From a virus (Duplodnaviria > Heunggongvirae > Uroviricota > Caudoviricetes), in the IMG/VR virus record IMGVR_UViG_2579778721_000001, positions 1 through 6,104 of that record: a stretch of 6,104 nt of DNA; one strand, written 5' to 3'. The translations under genes and the position numbers were made by a program. Of the stretch, positions 1 to 6,104 are shown piece after piece. The notes under the pieces were generated by a model. That model made no database searches, was not told the DNA's origin, and saw nothing but the letters and a program-made list of their open reading frames with translations. How positions within the stretch are numbered: position 1 is the stretch's first letter; each line of letters begins with the position of its first letter.

Positions 1-351
1 TCACCAGAAAATTGATAACAGAGGGCGTTGCAGCGGGGTTGTCACTTAAGCGTATGGTCAACCTGACAACCCGGTGTCCTCAACGGGGGAAGGAATAACC
101 CCGCCATACTTACCGCCGCGCCATTTCGCGGATTGCCACAACCGGAAGCGCACGGTCGACGAAAATTTAACGACAGGCTATCTATGAACCAGCTACCTCG
201 CCGTGCGCTTTCGCGTTATGGTCTGACTTTTCAGGGAAATATCCTTTCAGTAAACTGTCAGTGCCGGATGCTCACCCGTGTCCGGCGCACGCACTCCACC
301 TCACCCGTGGAGAACTCCTTAATTACCAACCTTAGCTTCGTTGGTTATCTA

Positions 352-570
352 TTAACGCGGGTATGTAATCATTCTGGCAATGCTTAATGCCGCTGCTTTT
401 TCCAGCCTGGTGATATCCTGCTCCAGAGCGGACAGATTTTCAGCCTGCTTAGCTCTGGCTTCATTAGCCCATTTCAGATCCTGCGCTGCATTAATTTTCT
501 GGCGCATCCACTCATAAAGTTCATCATCGGTATAGTCTGGCGCGATGATGACGGGTTCTCGTTTCTGCAT
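352..570 (-). CDS. Hypothetical small protein (72 aa), distal gene of the leftward early operon; YdfC-like by size and position only
   Basis: ORF in supplied track. ATG at 570-568 with a GAGGA Shine-Dalgarno (complement of 577-581) about 6 nt upstream. Tandem in-frame stops TAA/TAG. Same strand and tight spacing with the two upstream small ORFs. Confidence 0.6.
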   Translation of the reverse strand: MQKREPVIIAPDYTDDELYEWMRQKINAAQDLKWANEARAKQAENLSALEQDITRLEKAAALSIARMITYPR

Positions 571-599
571 ACTGATTCCTCGCGGTGCTGTTTCGCTTA

Positions 600-710
600 T
601 CAGCCGTTAGATTTTCCCGAACTGGAAAGCGCCTGTTTAAATTCACTGAAGCTGAGAGCTTCTTCGCCTTCGGCAAGACCATCGAAGTATTCTTCGTAAG
701 CCTTTTCCAT
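600..710 (-). CDS. Small protein, 36 aa (MEKAYEEYFDGLAEGEEALSFSEFKQALSSSGKSNG); middle gene of leftward operon
   Basis: Manual translation of the minus strand; absent from the ORF track, presumably below its length cutoff. ATG at 710-708, stop TGA (complement of 600-602). Start lies 19 nt after the stop of the 730..885 ORF and its stop 29 nt before the next ATG. No clear SD, so it rests mainly on operon context and acidic, non-random composition. Confidence 0.4.
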   Translation of the reverse strand: MEKAYEEYFDGLAEGEEALSFSEFKQALSSSGKSNG

Positions 711-729
711 GATTGTGTCGAAATCCATA

Positions 730-885
730 TCACTCACCTGAGTTTCTTTCCAGCCAGCGACGGGCACCATTTTCGGTTTTAAACGTTTTGCTTTTGGTAT
801 ACGTCATCGCGGTGAATGTGCCGTCCTGGTTGGGAAACACGCCGTACACCAGAGATTCGTTGTTGCCAAGCTCGATAGTATCCAT
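730..885 (-). CDS. Small protein, 51 aa (MDTIELGNNESLVYGVFPNQDGTFTAMTYTKSKTFKTENGARRWLERNSGE); first gene after the pL-like promoter; possibly DUF1391 (YdfA/YdaF-type)
   Basis: Manual translation; absent from the ORF track. ATG at 885-883 preceded by GAGG (complement of 891-894) with a 5-nt spacer. Stop TGA (complement of 730-732). Size and position match the first small gene of Rac/Qin-type leftward operons; family assignment is from memory, not a search. Confidence 0.55.
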   Translation of the reverse strand: MDTIELGNNESLVYGVFPNQDGTFTAMTYTKSKTFKTENGARRWLERNSGE

Positions 886-954
886 GCTGACCTCATTTCC
901 CCTTAACGCCGGGTGGCGGAACTAAAACCTACAGCGCCGTGCTGTTCTTGATAG

Positions 955-977
955 AAATATTAGTAACGCGGATATTT
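955..977. promoter_or_regulatory. Putative operator (OL-type) palindrome AAATAT-N11-ATATTT overlapping the pL -10
   Basis: Inverted repeat AAATAT (955-960) / ATATTT (972-977). Contains the 9-mer AAATATTAG that recurs at 1044-1052 and, inverted, at 1671-1679 in the pR region. Confidence 0.4.
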
Positions 978-985
978 TAAGTCAA
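957..985 (-). promoter_or_regulatory. pL-like sigma70 promoter for the leftward operon
   Basis: On the minus strand: -35 TTGACT (complement of 980-985), 17-bp spacer, -10 TAATAT (complement of 957-962). About 65 nt upstream of the ATG at 885. The -10 sits inside the operator-like motif CTAATATTT. Confidence 0.45.
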
Positions 986-1042
986 CAGTATGGCGTATGA
1001 TATTTTTGATTTGGTAACTATGTAAATGTTTTTTCAAGGGAA

Positions 1043-1056
1043 AAATATTAGTTATA
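1043..1056. promoter_or_regulatory. Second copy of the operator-like 9-mer AAATATTAG (possible OL2 or secondary promoter)
   Basis: AAATATTAGT at 1044-1053 matches 955-964 at 10 of 10 positions (11 of 13 over the extended site). No convincing -35 at 17 bp, so more likely a binding site than a promoter. Confidence 0.3.
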
Positions 1057-1082
1057 CAGCTGATTTGCAGAAGTTATGGCAC

Positions 1083-1112
1083 AAAAAAACCGACTAAGAC
1101 GTCGGTTTTTTT
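1083..1112. terminator. Bidirectional Rho-independent terminator between the repressor gene and the leftward operon
   Basis: A-run (1083-1089), stem CCGAC (1090-1094), loop TAAGAC, stem GTCGG (1101-1105), T-run (1106-1112). The hairpin is followed by a U-run on either strand. Sits 27 nt past the repressor stop. Confidence 0.7.
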
Positions 1113-1138
1113 GTTGTGGATGGGGTAGTGAGCGGTGG

Positions 1139-1600
1139 CTACTGGTTACGTTTCTTTAGTGCCAGCATGTTCTCGAAGGCTTCCTCGTAGAGCTTGTTTA
1201 GTCCACGTAGCTGGTTAAGGAGTTTGGCTTTTTCTGACGCAGGTAGAATCTCGAAGAGGTTAAGTAACTCTGCCTGTTCTTCATTGACCAGCCTCCATCC
1301 TTTGCCTGAAAAGTTATCATCATAAGTATCTGATGATCTTACATAATTCATTAAGTCTTTAAGGTCTTCTCGAATGTCCTCTGGTTTTACCTTTAACAGA
1401 GCCGCAAATTTTAGCGCAGCGTCGGTATTTACCGGTATCTTGCCGTTCAGATACTGGCTAACGGTGCCTTGAGATTCGAATCCCAACAACTCAGCCGCCA
1501 GCTCTTGAGTCAGCTTCAGCTCTTTTTTTCTTGCATTCCATGCGGCTTTTAAATTCTTGCTCGCTTCTGGAGTTGCAATCACTTCGCGTGTTTTTTTCAT
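1139..1600 (-). CDS. Prophage repressor, HTH XRE/cI-type N-terminal domain, 153 aa, no S24 peptidase domain (DicA/RacR-type)
   Basis: ORF in track. The HTH segment QELAAELLGFESQGTVSQYLNGKIPVNTDAALKFAALLKV matches the lambda cI helix-turn-helix pattern ([39 protein letters not shown]). Divergent from a Cro-like gene. At 153 aa it is too short for a LexA-like C-terminal domain. No SD upstream of the ATG, consistent with a leaderless mRNA. Confidence 0.85.
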   Translation of the reverse strand: MKKTREVIATPEASKNLKAAWNARKKELKLTQELAAELLGFESQGTVSQYLNGKIPVNTDAALKFAALLKVKPEDIREDLKDLMNYVRSSDTYDDNFSGKGWRLVNEEQAELLNLFEILPASEKAKLLNQLRGLNKLYEEAFENMLALKKRNQ

Positions 1601-1606
1601 ACATAG

Positions 1607-1634
1607 AGTTTATTTGTTTTACCAATATTATCAA
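1607..1634 (-). promoter_or_regulatory. Candidate pRM-like promoter producing a leaderless repressor mRNA
   Basis: On the minus strand: -35 TTGATA (complement of 1629-1634), 16-bp spacer, -10 TAAACT (complement of 1607-1612), ending 6 nt before the ATG at 1600. Weak hexamers, as expected for an activated maintenance promoter. Speculative. Confidence 0.3.
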
Positions 1635-1648
1635 AGATAGTCTGGCTA

Positions 1649-1677
1649 TTGATCTTTAAAATTAGCGGGGCTAATAT
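1649..1677 (+). promoter_or_regulatory. pR-like sigma70 promoter for the rightward early operon
   Basis: -35 TTGATC (1649-1654), 17-bp spacer, -10 TAATAT (1672-1677). About 30 nt upstream of the cro-like ATG at 1708. Overlapped by the palindrome ATTAGC-GGG-GCTAAT (1661-1675). Confidence 0.5.
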
Positions 1678-1679
1678 TT
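1658..1679. promoter_or_regulatory. Putative OR operator palindrome (AAAATTAGCGGGGCTAATATTT)
   Basis: Inverted repeat ATTAGC / GCTAAT around a GGG centre. The right half CTAATATTT is the reverse complement of the AAATATTAG motif in the pL region and overlaps the pR -10. Confidence 0.45.
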
Positions 1680-1707
1680 GCTCGAGGCATAACGTAGAAG
1701 GTTGGCT

Positions 1708-1983
1708 ATGAACTTAAGAGACTATTTAAAAGAGAAACATATCACCCAGCTACAGTTTGGGAAGCTAACGGGTTTATCTCAGGTGCATGTAAGTCGAGTG
1801 CTGGGGGGCTATGAAAGATTCAGCCCTGAAAAAGCATTACGTGTTGCTGAAGTAACGAATTTCGAGGTTACACCTCATGAACTCCGGCCTGATATTTACC
1901 CGAATCCAACCGACGGCTTACCTGTTGGATTCAAGGCTAACACACCAAATGCATCGGAGTTGATTCATGAAAATCAGGCATGA
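1708..1983 (+). CDS. Cro-like early regulator, YdaS-type HTH protein (91 aa from ATG 1708; the track ORF begins at an upstream TTG at 1702)
   Basis: ORF in track. GAAGG SD (1696-1700) 7 nt before ATG 1708. Divergent from the repressor. HTH-like segment LTGLSQVHVSRVL and a C-terminal ELRPD motif typical of YdaS/Cro-type proteins (from memory). Confidence 0.75.
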   Translation: MNLRDYLKEKHITQLQFGKLTGLSQVHVSRVLGGYERFSPEKALRVAEVTNFEVTPHELRPDIYPNPTDGLPVGFKANTPNASELIHENQA

Positions 1984-2392
1984 GCACATCCGCATGGCGA
2001 TGAATGCCTGGGCGCATCCGGACGGTGAAAAAGTTCCGGCAGCTGAAATAACCCGGGCTTATTTTGAGCTTGGTATGACGTTCCCGGAATTATATGACGA
2101 CAGCCATCCGGAAGCCCTGGCTCGCAATACCCAGAAAATTTTCCGCTGGGTGGAGAAAGACACTCCTGATGCGGTTAAAAAAATTCAGGCGTTGTTACCA
2201 GCGATCGAAAAAGCAATGCCGCCTCTGCTGGTGGCCCGAATGCGCAGCCACAGTTCAGCTTATTTTCGGGAGCTGGTGGAGACGCGGGAACGACTGGTGA
2301 GAGACGCTGATGATTTTGTCGCAGTGGCGATCGCTGGTTTCAACCAGATGAATCGTGGTGGCCCTGCAGGAAATATTGTGGCTGTGCATTGA
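1967..2392 (+). CDS. YdaT-type protein (cII functional analogue), 141 aa
   Basis: ORF in track. ATG 1967 overlaps the upstream stop (1981-1983) by 17 nt, with GGAG SD at 1956-1959. N-terminus MKIRHEHI and overall size match my recollection of the YdaT family; not verified by search. Confidence 0.7.
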   Translation: MKIRHEHIRMAMNAWAHPDGEKVPAAEITRAYFELGMTFPELYDDSHPEALARNTQKIFRWVEKDTPDAVKKIQALLPAIEKAMPPLLVARMRSHSSAYFRELVETRERLVRDADDFVAVAIAGFNQMNRGGPAGNIVAVH

Positions 2393-2463
2393 CTCGCAAT
2401 ATTCATACCGGATCACTTCCGGCAATTTGTGAGTAAAAAGATTCGGTATCAGAAGAGGTGAGT

Positions 2464-3504
2464 ATGGCTAACGCCTGGCTCAGATTATGGCATGACATGC
2501 CAAATGACCCTAAGTGGCGAACAATTGCCAGGGTGTCAGGGCAGCCAATTGCAACAGTGATGGCAGTGTATATCCACCTTCTGGTGAGCGCGTCACGAAA
2601 TGTCACGACATGTCACGGCGTGTCACTACGTGGTCACATTGATGTCACGACGGAAGATTTAGCAAGTGCGCTTGATGTGACGGAAGAAGTAATTGATTCA
2701 ATTTTACAGGCAATGCAGGGGCGGGTACTTGATGGAGATTTAATCACCGGATGGGAAAAACGCCAGGTACTGAAAGAGGACAATGGCAACGTTTCACAAA
2801 CCGCGAAATCCCCGGCAGAGCGCAAGAGAGCGCAGCGCGAGAGGGAAAAATTACGAAAACAGAATGAGGGGTGTCACGACGAGTCACGCATATGTCACGA
2901 CATGTCACGACGAGTCACGACAGATAAAGATACAGATAAAGAATTAAACCCCACACATAACGCGCACGTGCGCGAGAGTGCTCCGACCAGTGAGTCGAGT
3001 GGTACGCCGTTGCAGGCAGCAGAACCTGCATCCCTGGATGGACTGAGCGAACCCATCGGGAAATTTCCGATGGTCGATGACTGGCATCCGTCGCCGGATT
3101 TTCGACGACGGGCTGCGTTGTGGGGGATGGCTTTGCCGGAGCCGGAATTTACACCTGCTGAACTTGCCGCTTTCCGGGACTACTGGGCAGCGGAGGGGAA
3201 AGTTTTCACGCAGGTTCAGTGGGAGCAGAAATTCGCCCGTCACGTAAATCACGTCAGGGCGCAGGTTAAGCCAGTCAGCAAGGGGGTAAACCATGCAGCA
3301 GCACCAGGTGGCACCGCATCACGGGCAGTTCAGGAAATTCGGGCAGCACGTGAGCAGTGGGAACGTGAAAACGGATTTATCAGCGACGGAAACGGTCTGG
3401 AAGCTGTGGGAACTCATGGGGGAGGTTTATTCGAACCGCTGGACCCAGAAGAACGGGGCCGCACCTTCGAAGCTCTGGATTGCACAGATTGGCGCGATGA
3501 CTGA
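2464..3504 (+). CDS. Replication initiator (lambda O analogue): N-terminal DNA-binding region plus DnaT-like C-terminal domain; contains the putative origin
   Basis: ORF in track (GTG 2458; ATG 2464 preferred, GAGG SD at 2455-2458). Residues around FPMVDDWHPSPDFRRRAALWGMALPEPEFTPAELAAFRDYWAAEGKVFTQVQWEQKFARH align closely with the E. coli DnaT C-terminal domain ([59 protein letters not shown], from memory). Iteron arrays lie inside the gene, as in lambda O. Confidence 0.8.
   Translation: MANAWLRLWHDMPNDPKWRTIARVSGQPIATVMAVYIHLLVSASRNVTTCHGVSLRGHIDVTTEDLASALDVTEEVIDSILQAMQGRVLDGDLITGWEKRQVLKEDNGNVSQTAKSPAERKRAQREREKLRKQNEGCHDESRICHDMSRRVTTDKDTDKELNPTHNAHVRESAPTSESSGTPLQAAEPASLDGLSEPIGKFPMVDDWHPSPDFRRRAALWGMALPEPEFTPAELAAFRDYWAAEGKVFTQVQWEQKFARHVNHVRAQVKPVSKGVNHAAAPGGTASRAVQEIRAAREQWERENGFISDGNGLEAVGTHGGGLFEPLDPEERGRTFEALDCTDWRDD
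2591..2651. repeat. Iteron array 1: six direct copies of GTCAC(G/N)(A/N)C at 10-11 bp phasing
   Basis: GTCAC starts at 2592, 2602, 2612, 2622, 2633 and 2644. Spacing is not a multiple of 3, so the repeat is at DNA level, not protein level. Confidence 0.7.
2871..2921. repeat. Iteron array 2: five direct copies of GTCACGAC-type repeat at 10-11 bp phasing
   Basis: GTCAC starts at 2873, 2883, 2894, 2904 and 2914. Same orientation as array 1. Immediately followed by an AT-rich tract. Confidence 0.75.
2922..2947. other. AT-rich tract with direct repeat CAGATAAAGA x2 next to iteron array 2 (candidate DNA-unwinding element of the origin)
   Basis: cagataaagatacagataaagaattaaa is far more AT-rich than the surrounding coding sequence and directly abuts the last iteron, mirroring lambda ori architecture (iterons followed by an AT-rich region). 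Confidence 0.5.
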
Positions 3505-3958
3505 GCAGCAAATCCGACAGGTCTGCCGCCAGTGCATGGACCGCTGCCGGGCGGGTGAAACATGGCCTCCGGACCTGGCTGAGTTTGTGGCGCTGATTTC
3601 AGAAAGCGGGGCCAATCCATTTGGCCTGACGGTGGATGCTGTGATGGAGGAGTACCGCCGCTGGCGTGATGAGTCCTGGCGATATGACGGAAGCGACAAA
3701 TATCCGTGGCCTCAGCCTGTGCTGTACCACATCTGCCTCGAAATGCGTACCAGAGGGATTGAGCGCCAGATGACGCAGGGTGAGTTAAAACGACTTGCGG
3801 AACGGCAACTGACGAAATGGGCAAAGCATGTTGGTAACGGGATGAGTGTTCCGCCAGTGCGACGACAACTGGAAGGGGCGAAACACCCGCAAGGGCCAAC
3901 GCCAATTGAACGGCTGAAACAGGAATACGAACGCCGGAAGGCAGCTGGTTTTATTTGA
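3293..3958 (+). CDS. Lambda P-like replication protein (helicase loader), 221 aa
   Basis: ORF in track. Strong SD AGGGGG (3281-3286) 6 nt before ATG 3293. Colinear similarity to lambda P from memory: WIAQIGAMTEQ vs WVLAFRENGITTMEQ, YPWPQPVLYHICLEM vs YPWKSNAHYWLVTNL, ELKRLAERQLTKWAKHVGNG vs EFRRKAADELVHMTARINRG. The alignment register supports the 3293 start over the downstream ATGs. Confidence 0.7.
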   Translation: MQQHQVAPHHGQFRKFGQHVSSGNVKTDLSATETVWKLWELMGEVYSNRWTQKNGAAPSKLWIAQIGAMTEQQIRQVCRQCMDRCRAGETWPPDLAEFVALISESGANPFGLTVDAVMEEYRRWRDESWRYDGSDKYPWPQPVLYHICLEMRTRGIERQMTQGELKRLAERQLTKWAKHVGNGMSVPPVRRQLEGAKHPQGPTPIERLKQEYERRKAAGFI

Positions 3959-3991
3959 ATCTGAGAAACGATTTTGTCGGAGGAAATTTTA

Positions 3992-4762
3992 ATGGAAACC
4001 GTATTTGACGCACTGAAAGCAATGGGAAAAGCCACATCGGTAGAACTGGCCGCGCGACTTGATATCAGTCGTGAAGAGGTTCTCAACGAGCTGTGGGAAC
4101 TCAAAAGAAATGGCGTCGTTGATAAAACTGGTCACACCTGGTTTCTGGCTGGCGAAGGTGAATCCCGGGTAACCGAAGAGCGGCCAGTAAAATCTGAAGC
4201 ACAGGATATGCTGACCGGGGAGGTCGAACAAAAAGTTACCGCAGACATGATGATTGAGTTTATCGGTCAGGATGGTGCTAAAACGTGTGAGGAACTGGCG
4301 GGTAAGTTCGGCGTCAGTACTCGCAAGGTTGCCTCCACGCTGGCGGTGGTAACCGCAACGGGGCGGCTGGCACGCGTTAATCAGAACGGTAAATTTCGTT
4401 ACTGCATGCCGGGCGATAATTTACCAGCAGAGCCGAAAGCCGCGCTGGTAACGGAAAGTGATGGTAAGGCCTTTCCTCAGCCAGCAGGTGCTGCGTTACC
4501 AGTCCGGGAAGCCGCAACACAGGAAGAAATTAAAACAGAAACTGTGGCGGACATTGTGCAGCCGTTGCCATCGTTTACCGAAACGCAAGCAGATGAGCTG
4601 ATTTTTCCGTCCCTTCGCAGGGCAAACCTGGCGCTGCGCAGGGCGAAAAGTGATGTTCAGAAGTGGGAGCGAGTCTGCGCCGCGCTGCGGGAGGTGAACA
4701 AGCACCGGGATATTGTTCGACAGATTACTGATTCTTCCCGCCGTGTTGTATCGGAAAAGTGA
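3992..4762 (+). CDS. Hypothetical protein with two tandem winged-helix-like modules (256 aa from ATG 3992; the track ORF begins at TTG 3974)
   Basis: ORF in track. GGAGG SD (3979-3983) 8 nt before ATG 3992. Two internal HTH-like repeats (residues about 7-50 and 90-135). Confidence 0.7.
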
Positions 4763-4777
4763 TTGCCGGAGGCGCTT

Positions 4778-5170
4778 ATGGCAAAAGTATTTACACCAGA
4801 AGAGCGGGAAGAAGTGAAGGCGCGCATTGTGGAATTCGTGCGCCTGAGCGGACGAGAAACTTTTCGACAACTGGCAGATAAAACGGGTGTCAGTAAGACC
4901 GCTATTCGTCGTTTATCTGGTGCGCTTGCGGCCAGTGGTGATGTCTGGCTCTCTGGTTGCGGGGTATTTCCATCAGAGCAGGCGTATCGCGTATGGCGTA
5001 AGACACCGGAGAAGGCTGCTGACCCGACACTGATTCGAAAGTTACCTGACGGAGAAATACGTCGTTACAACAGACGGCAGAACATAATTTGTCGTGAGTG
5101 CCGCCAGAGCGAAGTTATGCAGCGTGTGCTGGCGTTCTATCGGGGAAACTTTCAGGAGGTGATGGAGTGA
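4778..5170 (+). CDS. Hypothetical winged-helix protein with C-terminal CxxC motif (130 aa from ATG 4778; the track ORF begins at TTG 4763)
   Basis: ORF in track. GGAGG SD (4768-4772) 5 nt before ATG 4778. The wHTH module EFVRLSGRETFRQLADKTGVSKTAIRRLSGALAASG is paralogous to module 2 of the upstream protein ([36 protein letters not shown]). Confidence 0.7.
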   Translation: MAKVFTPEEREEVKARIVEFVRLSGRETFRQLADKTGVSKTAIRRLSGALAASGDVWLSGCGVFPSEQAYRVWRKTPEKAADPTLIRKLPDGEIRRYNRRQNIICRECRQSEVMQRVLAFYRGNFQEVME

Positions 5171-5463
5171 GGGTCAGAGTTTATATTGCCGGTCCAATGA
5201 CGGGATATGAAAATTTCAACCGTGAGGCGTTTCACAAGGCGGAAGAGGAACTGAAACGGGAAGGGCATACCGTCTTAAACCCGGCAGTACTTCCGGACGG
5301 GCTGACACAGCCGCACTACATGGATATTTGCATGGCAATGATTCGTTGTGTGGATGCGATTTACATGCTGAATGGCTGGCAGCGGTCAGCGGGCGCTAAG
5401 GCAGAGCTGGCACTGGCGGAGAAACTGGGGCATGCAGTGATTTATCAGGAGGTGGCTCAATGA
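5167..5463 (+). CDS. DUF4406-like protein (nucleoside 2-deoxyribosyltransferase-like fold), 98 aa from GTG 5167
   Basis: Track ORF 5098..5463. Preferred start is GTG 5167, overlapping the upstream stop as GTGA, with GGAGG SD (5155-5159) 7 nt upstream. The N-terminal V-Y-I-A-G-P-M-T-G motif is typical of DUF4406 proteins (from memory). Confidence 0.65.
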   Translation: MRVRVYIAGPMTGYENFNREAFHKAEEELKREGHTVLNPAVLPDGLTQPHYMDICMAMIRCVDAIYMLNGWQRSAGAKAELALAEKLGHAVIYQEVAQ

Positions 5464-5921
5464 GAGAGGTTAACTATGAGGCGCTTCGTGAGGCAGCACA
5501 AAACTATCAGTCGACGCTGGCGTGGTATCAGGCTATCCCGGACAGCCCAAATGCTGAACGGGATTGTGATGCGGCTCTTGCTGCGTTTAAGCGTCACATC
5601 CGTCATCGGGAAGCGGATATTATCGCTGATTTGCTGGATGGACTGGAAGAAGCAAAATCACAACTCAACGAGCAGCGTGAGTATTACGAAGGCGTTATCT
5701 CTGATGGGAGCAAGCGTATTGCTGAACTGGAAGCGCGGGAAGTTCAATTACCGACTCGCTACGACCTTCGATATGGACACCCGATAAATGCAGATGAGCG
5801 ACATGTCATGATACCTAAAGAAAATGGCAGTTGGCTTTACCTGATTGACTTAGAACACGCATTACGCGTCGCTGGCATTCGCATCAAAGGAGAGGAGCAT
5901 GGAAATAAAACCAGAGGATGA
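5460..5921 (+). CDS. Hypothetical protein, 153 aa; N-terminus weakly reminiscent of Ead/Ea22-like phage proteins
   Basis: ORF in track. ATG 5460 overlaps the upstream stop as ATGA. AGGAGG SD (5447-5452) 7 nt upstream. The ALREAA N-terminal motif resemblance is from memory and low confidence. Confidence 0.6.
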   Translation: MREVNYEALREAAQNYQSTLAWYQAIPDSPNAERDCDAALAAFKRHIRHREADIIADLLDGLEEAKSQLNEQREYYEGVISDGSKRIAELEAREVQLPTRYDLRYGHPINADERHVMIPKENGSWLYLIDLEHALRVAGIRIKGEEHGNKTRG

Positions 5922-6104
5922 GTTAAGCAATATCGTTTTATTTCCGGTAAAAGAGGATGACCCTCGTAATCAGGTTAATTTTCTTTATGAGCCATCGGAA
6001 AGACCATATTGTCATCACGCCTCTGTTCGGGTTGACGAAAAAGAGCGTCAGGTCCGCTGTAAAATCTGCGGTGCAGTTGTGGAGCCGTTTGACTGGATGC
6101 TCTC
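5899..6104 (+). CDS. Hypothetical protein with Cys/His zinc-ribbon-like motif, 5' partial (runs off the window end)
   Basis: Manual translation from ATG 5899: MEIKPEDELSNIVLFPVKEDDPRNQVNFLYEPSERPYCHHASVRVDEKERQVRCKICGAVVEPFDWML..., open to the window end. SD AAGGAGAGGAG (5888-5898). Overlaps the upstream gene by 23 nt. Not in the track because no stop lies within the window. Confidence 0.5.
   Translation, partial: MEIKPEDELSNIVLFPVKEDDPRNQVNFLYEPSERPYCHHASVRVDEKERQVRCKICGAVVEPFDWML

Follow-up and report, generated by a model that had tools for sequence, protein, structure and literature searches.

We analyzed a 6,104-nucleotide stretch of viral DNA (positions 1 to 6,104 of IMG/VR record IMGVR_UViG_2579778721_000001, Caudoviricetes), which is called the window here. 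This is the early-right region of an E. coli prophage of the lambdoid, Rac/Qin-like type, and the window shares 99.8% identity with a prophage of E. coli ABU 83972 and with more than 100 other genomes. Within it, an O-like initiator gene carries two arrays of short direct repeats, the second of which is followed by an A-rich tract. An earlier note, made from the sequence alone, had proposed that these elements form a phage replication origin inside the initiator gene. The gene and the features that bear on this proposal are as follows (aa, amino acids; bp, base pairs; ssDNA, single-stranded DNA).

2464..3504, + strand: initiator (O-like) gene, 346 aa, which bears the repeats.
2592..2651, + strand: array 1, six direct GTCAC(G) putative iterons at 10/11-bp spacing; encodes the low-confidence loop of aa 46-62 that precedes the helix-turn-helix.
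2675..2682, - strand: possible inverted iteron copy, CCGTCACA on the - strand (GTGAC at 2677-2681 on the + strand), 33 bp past array 1; weak evidence.
2812..2865, + strand: DNA for the basic helix, aa 117-134 (PAERKRAQREREKLRKQN), helix H117-134 of the AF2 model; codons R120 at 2821-2823, K121 at 2824-2826, Q124 at 2833-2835 and R125 at 2836-2838.
2873..2921, + strand: array 2, five direct GTCACG putative iterons at 10/11-bp spacing; encodes a disordered linker.
2920..2950, + strand: A-rich purine tract, ACAGATAAAGA twice and then ATTAAA; presumed DNA unwinding element.
2961..2974, no strand assigned: perfect 14-bp GC-rich palindrome CGCGCACGTGCGCG, right of the A-rich tract, also scored as a stem.
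3064..3264, + strand: DNA for the DnaT-like ssDNA-binding domain, aa 201-267.
3497..3958, + strand: lambda-P-like helicase loader gene, overlapping the initiator stop codon.

The GTCAC starts of array 1 are located on the + strand at 2592, 2602, 2612, 2622, 2633 and 2644 (mean spacing 10.4 bp), and those of array 2 at 2873, 2883, 2894, 2904 and 2914 (mean spacing 10.25 bp), the latter array beginning at gene offset 410 of 1041. Using 1000 dinucleotide-preserving shuffles of the window as a chance test, we found that adjacent pairs of the same 5-mer spaced 10 or 11 bp apart occur 9 times in the window, compared with a mean of 1.1 and a maximum of 3 in the shuffles. The arrays are far beyond chance, and the six and five repeats in two arrays described in the earlier note were found at 2592-2651 and 2873-2921. 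The repeat unit given there, GTCAC(G)AC, was correct for its GTCAC(G) part only; the trailing AC is present in just 6 of the 11 window copies and drifts in relatives, and the conserved core is (T)GTCACG. Two copies of array 1 are degenerate (GTCACT at 2622 and GTCACA at 2633), and the cores occupy all three codon phases. GTCACGAC contains a "GTC..GAC" pseudo-dyad that might have been a dimer site; this reading was ruled out, since relatives do not conserve the trailing AC.

The doubled motif that had been noted in the AT-rich tract after array 2 is also present, with copies of ACAGATAAAGA at 2920-2930 and 2932-2942. The tract (2920-2950) is 74% A+T and 71% purine on the top strand, compared with 46% A+T for the whole gene, and the G+C minimum of the gene, 0.30, lies at 2920-2959. 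The GC-rich palindrome followed by TTATGTGTGGGGTTTAATT (2952-2974, - strand) makes a weak terminator-like site that is antisense to the initiator gene.

We also compared the relative placement of the two arrays. Conserved helical phasing between them was not seen, the distances from last copy to last copy being 270, 261, 258 and 249 bp. Because these inter-array distances differ by multiples of 3, not of 10.5, no inter-array phasing is claimed. The possible inverted copy past array 1 is at the same position in four related loci (L003-L006), and its GTG is conserved in 84% of 25 homologs; in a GCAACG-type Ralstonia phage, GTTGC (the reverse complement of GCAAC) is found. In Pseudomonas sp. JAI111 (L032), array 1 consists of two direct GTCACG copies and then three inverted GTGAC copies at 10-11-bp spacing. 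A convergent arrangement can therefore occur in array 1, as it does in that locus; the window has just a single possible inverted copy, at 2677.

We then analyzed the repeats in a codon alignment of 25 GTCACG-type homologs with a median amino acid identity of 70%. At four-fold third positions, the mean major-base frequency was 0.96 in the cores (n = 10) and 0.45 outside the cores (n = 15; Mann-Whitney p = 2e-5). While synonymous sites of equally conserved residues outside the cores were saturated, those inside the cores were near-invariant. At the start of the tract, nnAGATAAA, the third positions are conserved at ~1.0, even across amino acid changes. The number of copies varies: most relatives have four copies of array 1 and the window has six, a 21-bp, 7-codon in-frame difference; in close relatives array 1 has 4-6 copies and array 2 has 3-9, with changes in frame, and array 2 has 3-10 copies family-wide. 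These comparisons show that the repeats are under selection as DNA, beyond coding needs, and the homologs retain the nucleotide repeats as had been predicted.

The locus in Escherichia phage 204576 (L004, gene from 1501) has its frame shifted upstream of array 2, with a stop after 165 codons. Neither of the two GTCAC arrays nor the A-rich tract is disrupted in this locus, although its initiator frame is broken. The frameshift could reflect a pseudogene or a sequencing error.

The initiator protein consists of a winged-helix part (aa 1-100), the basic helix (aa 117-134), a disordered linker (aa 141-187) and a DnaT-like domain (aa 201-267). The DnaT C-terminal ssDNA-binding domain (PF17948) was matched in sequence and fold, and a PDB sequence search of the initiator gave a match only to the DnaT domain. 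For the N-domain, Pfam gave only a sub-threshold match to HTH_Crp_2. PF04492 (Phage_rep_O) was not matched by the whole protein or by aa 1-160 at E up to 10, and Pfam gave no match to the SPP1-type organizer families Phage_rep_org_N and Phg_2220_C. There were weak matches to PHROG 4880 "replisome organizer" (E 4.5e-5) and PHROG 10469 "DnaD-like helicase loader" (E 4.8e-7), and some family members are labeled "phage replisome organizer" by NCBI. In the AF2 model, both arrays coincide with low-confidence or disordered segments of the protein and are therefore sited where the protein tolerates a sequence imposed by the DNA. The product of the next gene (3497-3958) matched Pfam PF06992 Phage_lambda_P (E 5e-16) and PHROG 109 "P-like helicase loader", and its RefSeq name is "replication protein P".

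To describe the architecture across the family, we collected ~260 loci from annotated phages, one genome per species, and viral and metagenomic contigs. When aa 1-135 were searched with phmmer, at least 1841 clusters (50% identity) matched at E of 1e-3 or better, which makes this a large family. Phages and prophages of Gamma-, Beta- and Alphaproteobacteria share the two-array layout; their cores have the form G-N-N-A-C-G but differ between clades, falling by lineage into the classes GTCACG, GTAACG, GAAACG, CGAACG, GCAACG and GTGACG. Array 2 with at least three phased copies was found in 112 non-redundant loci. In these, the 30 nucleotides past the last array 2 iteron are more purine-rich than the winged-helix-coding part in 108 loci (medians 0.80 vs 0.54) and more AT-rich in 110 (medians 0.63 vs 0.41). 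Of 125 non-redundant loci, 49 carry array 1. In 44 of these 49 its core is that of array 2, and in the remaining five, which have mixed arrays, the majority call was GA/AA. Phages of E. coli, Pseudomonas and Aeromonas have array 1 at the same codons, in four copies. In all, ~190 diverse loci were compared; array 2 with the purine tract is near-universal among them and is the core of the element, and array 1, seen in ~40%, is accessory.

Some loci depart from this layout. Two loci from Serratia and Pantoea genomes (L054 and L071) keep the winged-helix domain without the basic helix and the ACG iterons, and have CTACGTA-type repeats instead at about +320 to +400 nucleotides from the gene start. 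Their downstream domain also differs, with a VGISxNPWAR motif, and is possibly T5orf172/GIY-YIG-like. In L047, L255, L257, L228 and similar loci, a TCACG-type helix and array 2 are joined to a winged helix of the GAACG clade and array 1 is absent; the loop in the L047-like loci reads ..AEDRGH... These L047-like loci suggest that array 1 may be lost when the specificity module is swapped.

The initiator gene of the window is a mosaic. Window 898-1990 is 97% identical to Rac-SA53, window 1957-2942 is ~90% identical to E. coli phages such as vB_EcoS-689R5 (the L003 match), and window 2922-4127 has about 90-93% nucleotide identity with Rac-SA53 ydaU/ydaV. The junction at 2922-2942, a 21-bp overlap, is the A-rich repeat, which is common to all partners and is a candidate recombination linker. 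The YdaT-like gene and the initiator N-module form a cassette with junctions at 1957-1990 and 2922-2942. In E. coli, Pseudomonas and Aeromonas phages, the repeat-bearing N-module is joined to varied C-domains and loaders or helicases. This exchange of N- and C-modules follows the logic of lambda O, in which the N-half has origin specificity and the C-half has loader specificity.

To relate the repeats to the protein, we compared the core class with the residues of the basic helix. In this helix, R120 is invariant and residue 125 is near-invariant and basic (Arg; Lys in the gGAACG sphingomonad type). The class table, built from 123 non-redundant loci, gives the following residues at positions 121 and 124, with the number of loci that carry them.

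Core TCACG: K at 121 and Q at 124, 54 of 57 loci.
Core TGACG: T at 121 and Y or W at 124, 5 of 5 loci.
Core TAACG: V at 121 and F, Y or H at 124, 8 of 10 loci.
Core AAACG: V at 121 and F, H or Y at 124, 9 of 15 loci.
Core CAACG: S at 121 and H, F, Y or R at 124, 8 of 10 loci.
Core GAACG: A, S, G or K at 121 and W, H or F at 124, 23 of 24 loci.

Among the N-terminal columns, the per-column mutual information with the core class was highest for residues 121 (1.45) and 124 (1.35), of 2.23 bits. The next informative columns were residue 58, which is trivial as it is encoded by array 1, and then residues 128 and 117. On an alpha-helix, residues 117, 121, 124 and 128 share one face. The association of class and residues was above that of all 2000 shuffles confined to winged-helix clades. 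Two loci (L023 and L041) have winged helices that are 80% identical, yet L023 pairs GTCACG with RKRAQ and L041 pairs GTAACG with RVRRY; the switch extends to the array 1 copies, which occupy the same codons in both. Conversely, there are winged helices only 24-27% identical that have both the core and the helix motif in common. Core class is thus decoupled from winged-helix phylogeny. When a (121,124) lookup trained on the 123 loci was applied to 60 new metagenomic loci, the core was predicted correctly in 52, and the eight errors were all TA/AA or GA/AA confusions.

The co-variation makes it somewhat more probable than the opposite that the basic helix (aa 117-134), and not the winged-helix part, is the iteron reader. 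A further proposal, to which we give even chances, is that the basic helix, free-standing, reads iterons as a module and by a nearly one-to-one code, which would divide the family into private, orthogonal initiator/origin specificity groups. In the code that we propose, residues 121 and 124 may specify the dinucleotide before the invariant ACG: K/Q may specify TC; T/aromatic, TG; V/aromatic, TA or AA; S/His, CA; and A, G or S with Trp, GA. If this is true, a switch of specificity would need a concerted change of every iteron in both arrays, one of them within the codons for the winged-helix domain of the initiator itself. The family would then have a naturally occurring, re-programmable origin-recognition code, and it would provide a rare case of co-evolution of binding sites and the protein's own codons at identical nucleotides.

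Taking these results together, we consider it quite probable, on the grounds of sequence comparison, that the GTCACG arrays are iterons for the gene's own product and that, with the A-rich tract, they constitute the replication origin of the prophage. We infer that initiator binding would be followed by oligomerization, unwinding and helicase loading. In the proposed sequence of events, derepression would lead to rightward transcription and synthesis of the 346-aa initiator, whose monomers would bind head-to-tail, one per helical turn and on one DNA face, at array 2 and at the accessory array 1 ~220 bp upstream. The basic helix of each monomer (aa 117-134) would lie in the major groove, where R120 and R125 would read the constant ACG and residues 121 and 124 (K and Q here) would read the variable dinucleotide (TC here), while the winged-helix domain, possibly DnaD-NTD-like in fold, would join the monomers together. 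The resulting nucleoprotein complex would stress and open the adjoining A-rich tract. The DnaT-like C-terminal domain would then hold the single strand and/or dock the lambda-P-like loader with host DnaB.

Several points weigh against this interpretation. Array 1 is missing in ~60% of the relatives. With ~31 bp the A-rich tract is short, and its purine richness could in part be a by-product of the charged D/E/K codons of the linker. The co-variation of the helix and array 2 could partly be due to physical linkage, as the two are 20-90 nucleotides apart, and it might be the winged-helix domain that actually reads the DNA, the helix only tuning this reading. In addition, literature searches on Rac oriJ, iterons, replisome organizers, repeats in replication genes and DnaT found no description of the repeat or the family. 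As for linkage, pure linkage as the cause of the helix/iteron association is weakened by array 1, which lies beyond conserved winged-helix codons and switches in concert. The concordance of array 1 argues against pure linkage without proving contact.

Of the alternatives to an origin, the one that survives best is that the arrays are operators, for autoregulation or as a transcription roadblock, bound by the initiator or another phage protein, with the origin located elsewhere. We regard this as unlikely. Inverted iteron copies serve autorepression in iteron plasmids, and the inverted copy after array 1 in many relatives would fit such a role, as would the distance of array 1 from the A-rich tract and its dispensability in ~60% of relatives. 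On the other hand, a purine-rich, relatively AT-rich tract follows array 2 in 108-110 of the 112 loci, the position of the arrays is that of the lambda and SPP1 origins, and a promoter-like site is absent nearby. An operator role of array 1 is moreover compatible with an origin role, and regulation would not exclude an origin.

It was also considered that the repeats may be a hotspot of recombination or slippage that binds nothing and is kept for module exchange and variation in linker length. The mosaic junction adjoins array 2 and the copy number is polymorphic, as would be expected of such a hotspot. However, slippage alone cannot hold a 6-bp core over ~60% amino acid divergence while the spacers drift, and a hotspot cannot explain why arrays 220 bp apart switch their core together with two protein residues; we consider this explanation highly improbable.

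Slightly less probable still is that the arrays bind a host factor or the product of a neighboring gene (YdaT, DUF1627 or DUF977) and act as a centromere-like or nucleoid-organizing site. Two arrays of about five short, one-turn-phased repeats do resemble plasmid partition sites such as parC of plasmid R1. This resemblance has to be set against the core class, which tracks two residues of the initiator helix across unrelated hosts and neighbor genes, against the arrays, which travel with the N-module and not with the downstream genes, and against the absence of partition genes from the window.

Least credible is that the repeats are selected as peptide, as a Cys/His or Ser-Arg/Asn-Val-Thr motif with the DNA periodicity as a by-product. 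The GTCACG group does show good conservation of the peptide ASRNVT..GH..VT, with recurring Cys/His. The cores, however, are read in all three frames, and their synonymous sites are near-invariant, when outside the cores those of residues that are just as conserved have become saturated. In other clades the DNA periodicity persists although the encoded peptides differ and have no Cys or His. The arrays also encode low-confidence or disordered segments, and are free to vary in copy number. The results on synonymous sites, on the three frames, across clades and on co-variation thus contradict the peptide, other-protein and hotspot explanations, and an origin read by the gene's own product remains the preferred interpretation.

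The remaining genes of the window were also analyzed. Those upstream of the initiator gene are as follows.

1139-1600, - strand: repressor gene.
1702-1983: YdaS-like cro analogue.
1967-2392: YdaT-like gene.

Downstream of the loader gene, the genes at 3974-5921 encode DUF1627, DUF977, DUF4406 and Ead/Ea22-like proteins; they are typical lambdoid "nin-like" filler, with HTH-like segments in several. A protein family search of the window genes found no partition genes, and no Rfam families were found in the window. No sigma-70-like promoter was found at 2300-3200, and a promoter inside the initiator gene was rejected since such a site is absent there. Relative to the prophage of ABU 83972 (L001), the window lacks 575 bp (L001 3332-3906) at 331/332, a segment with two small hypothetical genes (WP_000102677.1 and WP_000394526.1); outside this gap, the window and L001 are 99.4-99.8% identical. 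The initiator gene occurs in several prophages per genome, at a median of 2 places and a maximum of 14. Most E. coli database entries that match aa 1-171 have a "partial" label and come from short contigs, which suggests that the mosaic, repeat-bearing initiator gene is a frequent assembly break point.

Since lambdoid prophages are expected to have their origin within an O-like gene, the basic claim is ordinary, and remarks on repeats within the O-like gene are routine in the literature. What is new here is the short one-turn cores, the additional array (array 1) in a loop-coding part of the winged helix, and the proposed two-residue specificity code. The family is widespread in phages and prophages of Proteobacteria, with an N-domain that has no Pfam model and an origin that has not been described, and an array of G-N-N-A-C-G followed by a purine tract in the linker can serve as a concrete annotation rule. 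The co-variation is clean enough for specificity to be predicted from two residues. Origin specificity, the replication incompatibility of prophages and module exchange thereby become directly testable, and orthogonal initiator/origin pairs for engineering could follow. The repeats, some of them in the loop-coding part of the initiator's own winged helix, show how a dual coding constraint is accommodated: the sites lie in loops and linkers, and copies are gained or lost in frame, of which the 21-bp difference in array 1 is an example.

Among known systems, Rac oriJ/YdaU has the same genomic context of repressor, YdaS, YdaT, initiator and loader, and Rac-SA53 shares the DnaT-like C-terminal half and the loader. 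No oriJ feature is annotated in the K-12 record. The earlier note had suggested a search of Rac oriJ for the same repeat; that repeat is not there, as homology to Rac-SA53 starts at 2922 and the YdaU genes of Rac-SA53 and K-12 have no GTCAC arrays. Unlike the initiator of the window, YdaU of Rac-SA53 and K-12 has a DUF1376 N-domain, and at the place equivalent to the window arrays Rac-SA53 has a perfect 10-bp inverted repeat, TGTTCAAACA/TGTTTGAACA.

Plasmid iterons are ~17-22 bp and are located outside the rep gene (pPS10, R6K, RK2 and RepA_N plasmids such as pSK41). In contrast, the cores of the window are 6-7 bp with one-turn spacing and lie inside the coding sequence, and their specificity maps to a basic helix. 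The satellite phage P4 has octamer iterons about once per turn in two separated cis sites, ori and crr, both of which are bound by alpha. P4 alpha is, however, a fusion of primase, helicase and initiator, and its two sites, separated by 4.5 kb, do not lie within winged-helix codons.

A likeness is also found in SPP1, where oriL lies inside gene 38 of the organizer, with boxes bound by G38P and an adjacent AT-rich unwinding element (PMC5737612), and where G38P also binds a second, distant site, oriR (PMC5737612). In both systems, the origin (a proposed one in the window) is in the initiator's own gene, the initiator has no AAA+ domain, and the loader and the helicase are separate. The two differ in that no relationship was detected by Pfam and the PHROG matches are weak, in the type of repeat, and in the second array of the window, which is in the same gene.

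The placement is also that of lambda ori, as had been claimed. In lambda, the origin is mid-gene, between an origin-binding N-part and a loader-recruiting C-part, and behind the annotated repeats come first an A-rich, purine-rich tract and next an inverted repeat, as in the window. In both, a P-type loader gene is directly downstream, the gene follows cro- and cII-like genes, and the N and C halves exchange. The difference from the lambda iterons that had been pointed out likewise holds: lambda has four 18-bp iterons (annotated at 39034-39118), each of which has internal dyad symmetry and binds a dimer (PMC6022878), whereas the window has 5 + 6 asymmetric cores of 6-7 bp, one per turn, in blocks 222 bp apart. 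The N-domain of the window initiator, unlike that of lambda O, does not match Phage_rep_O, its C-domain is DnaT-like, and its probable reader is a basic helix. The element in the window would thus be analogous, not homologous, to lambda ori and SPP1 oriL.

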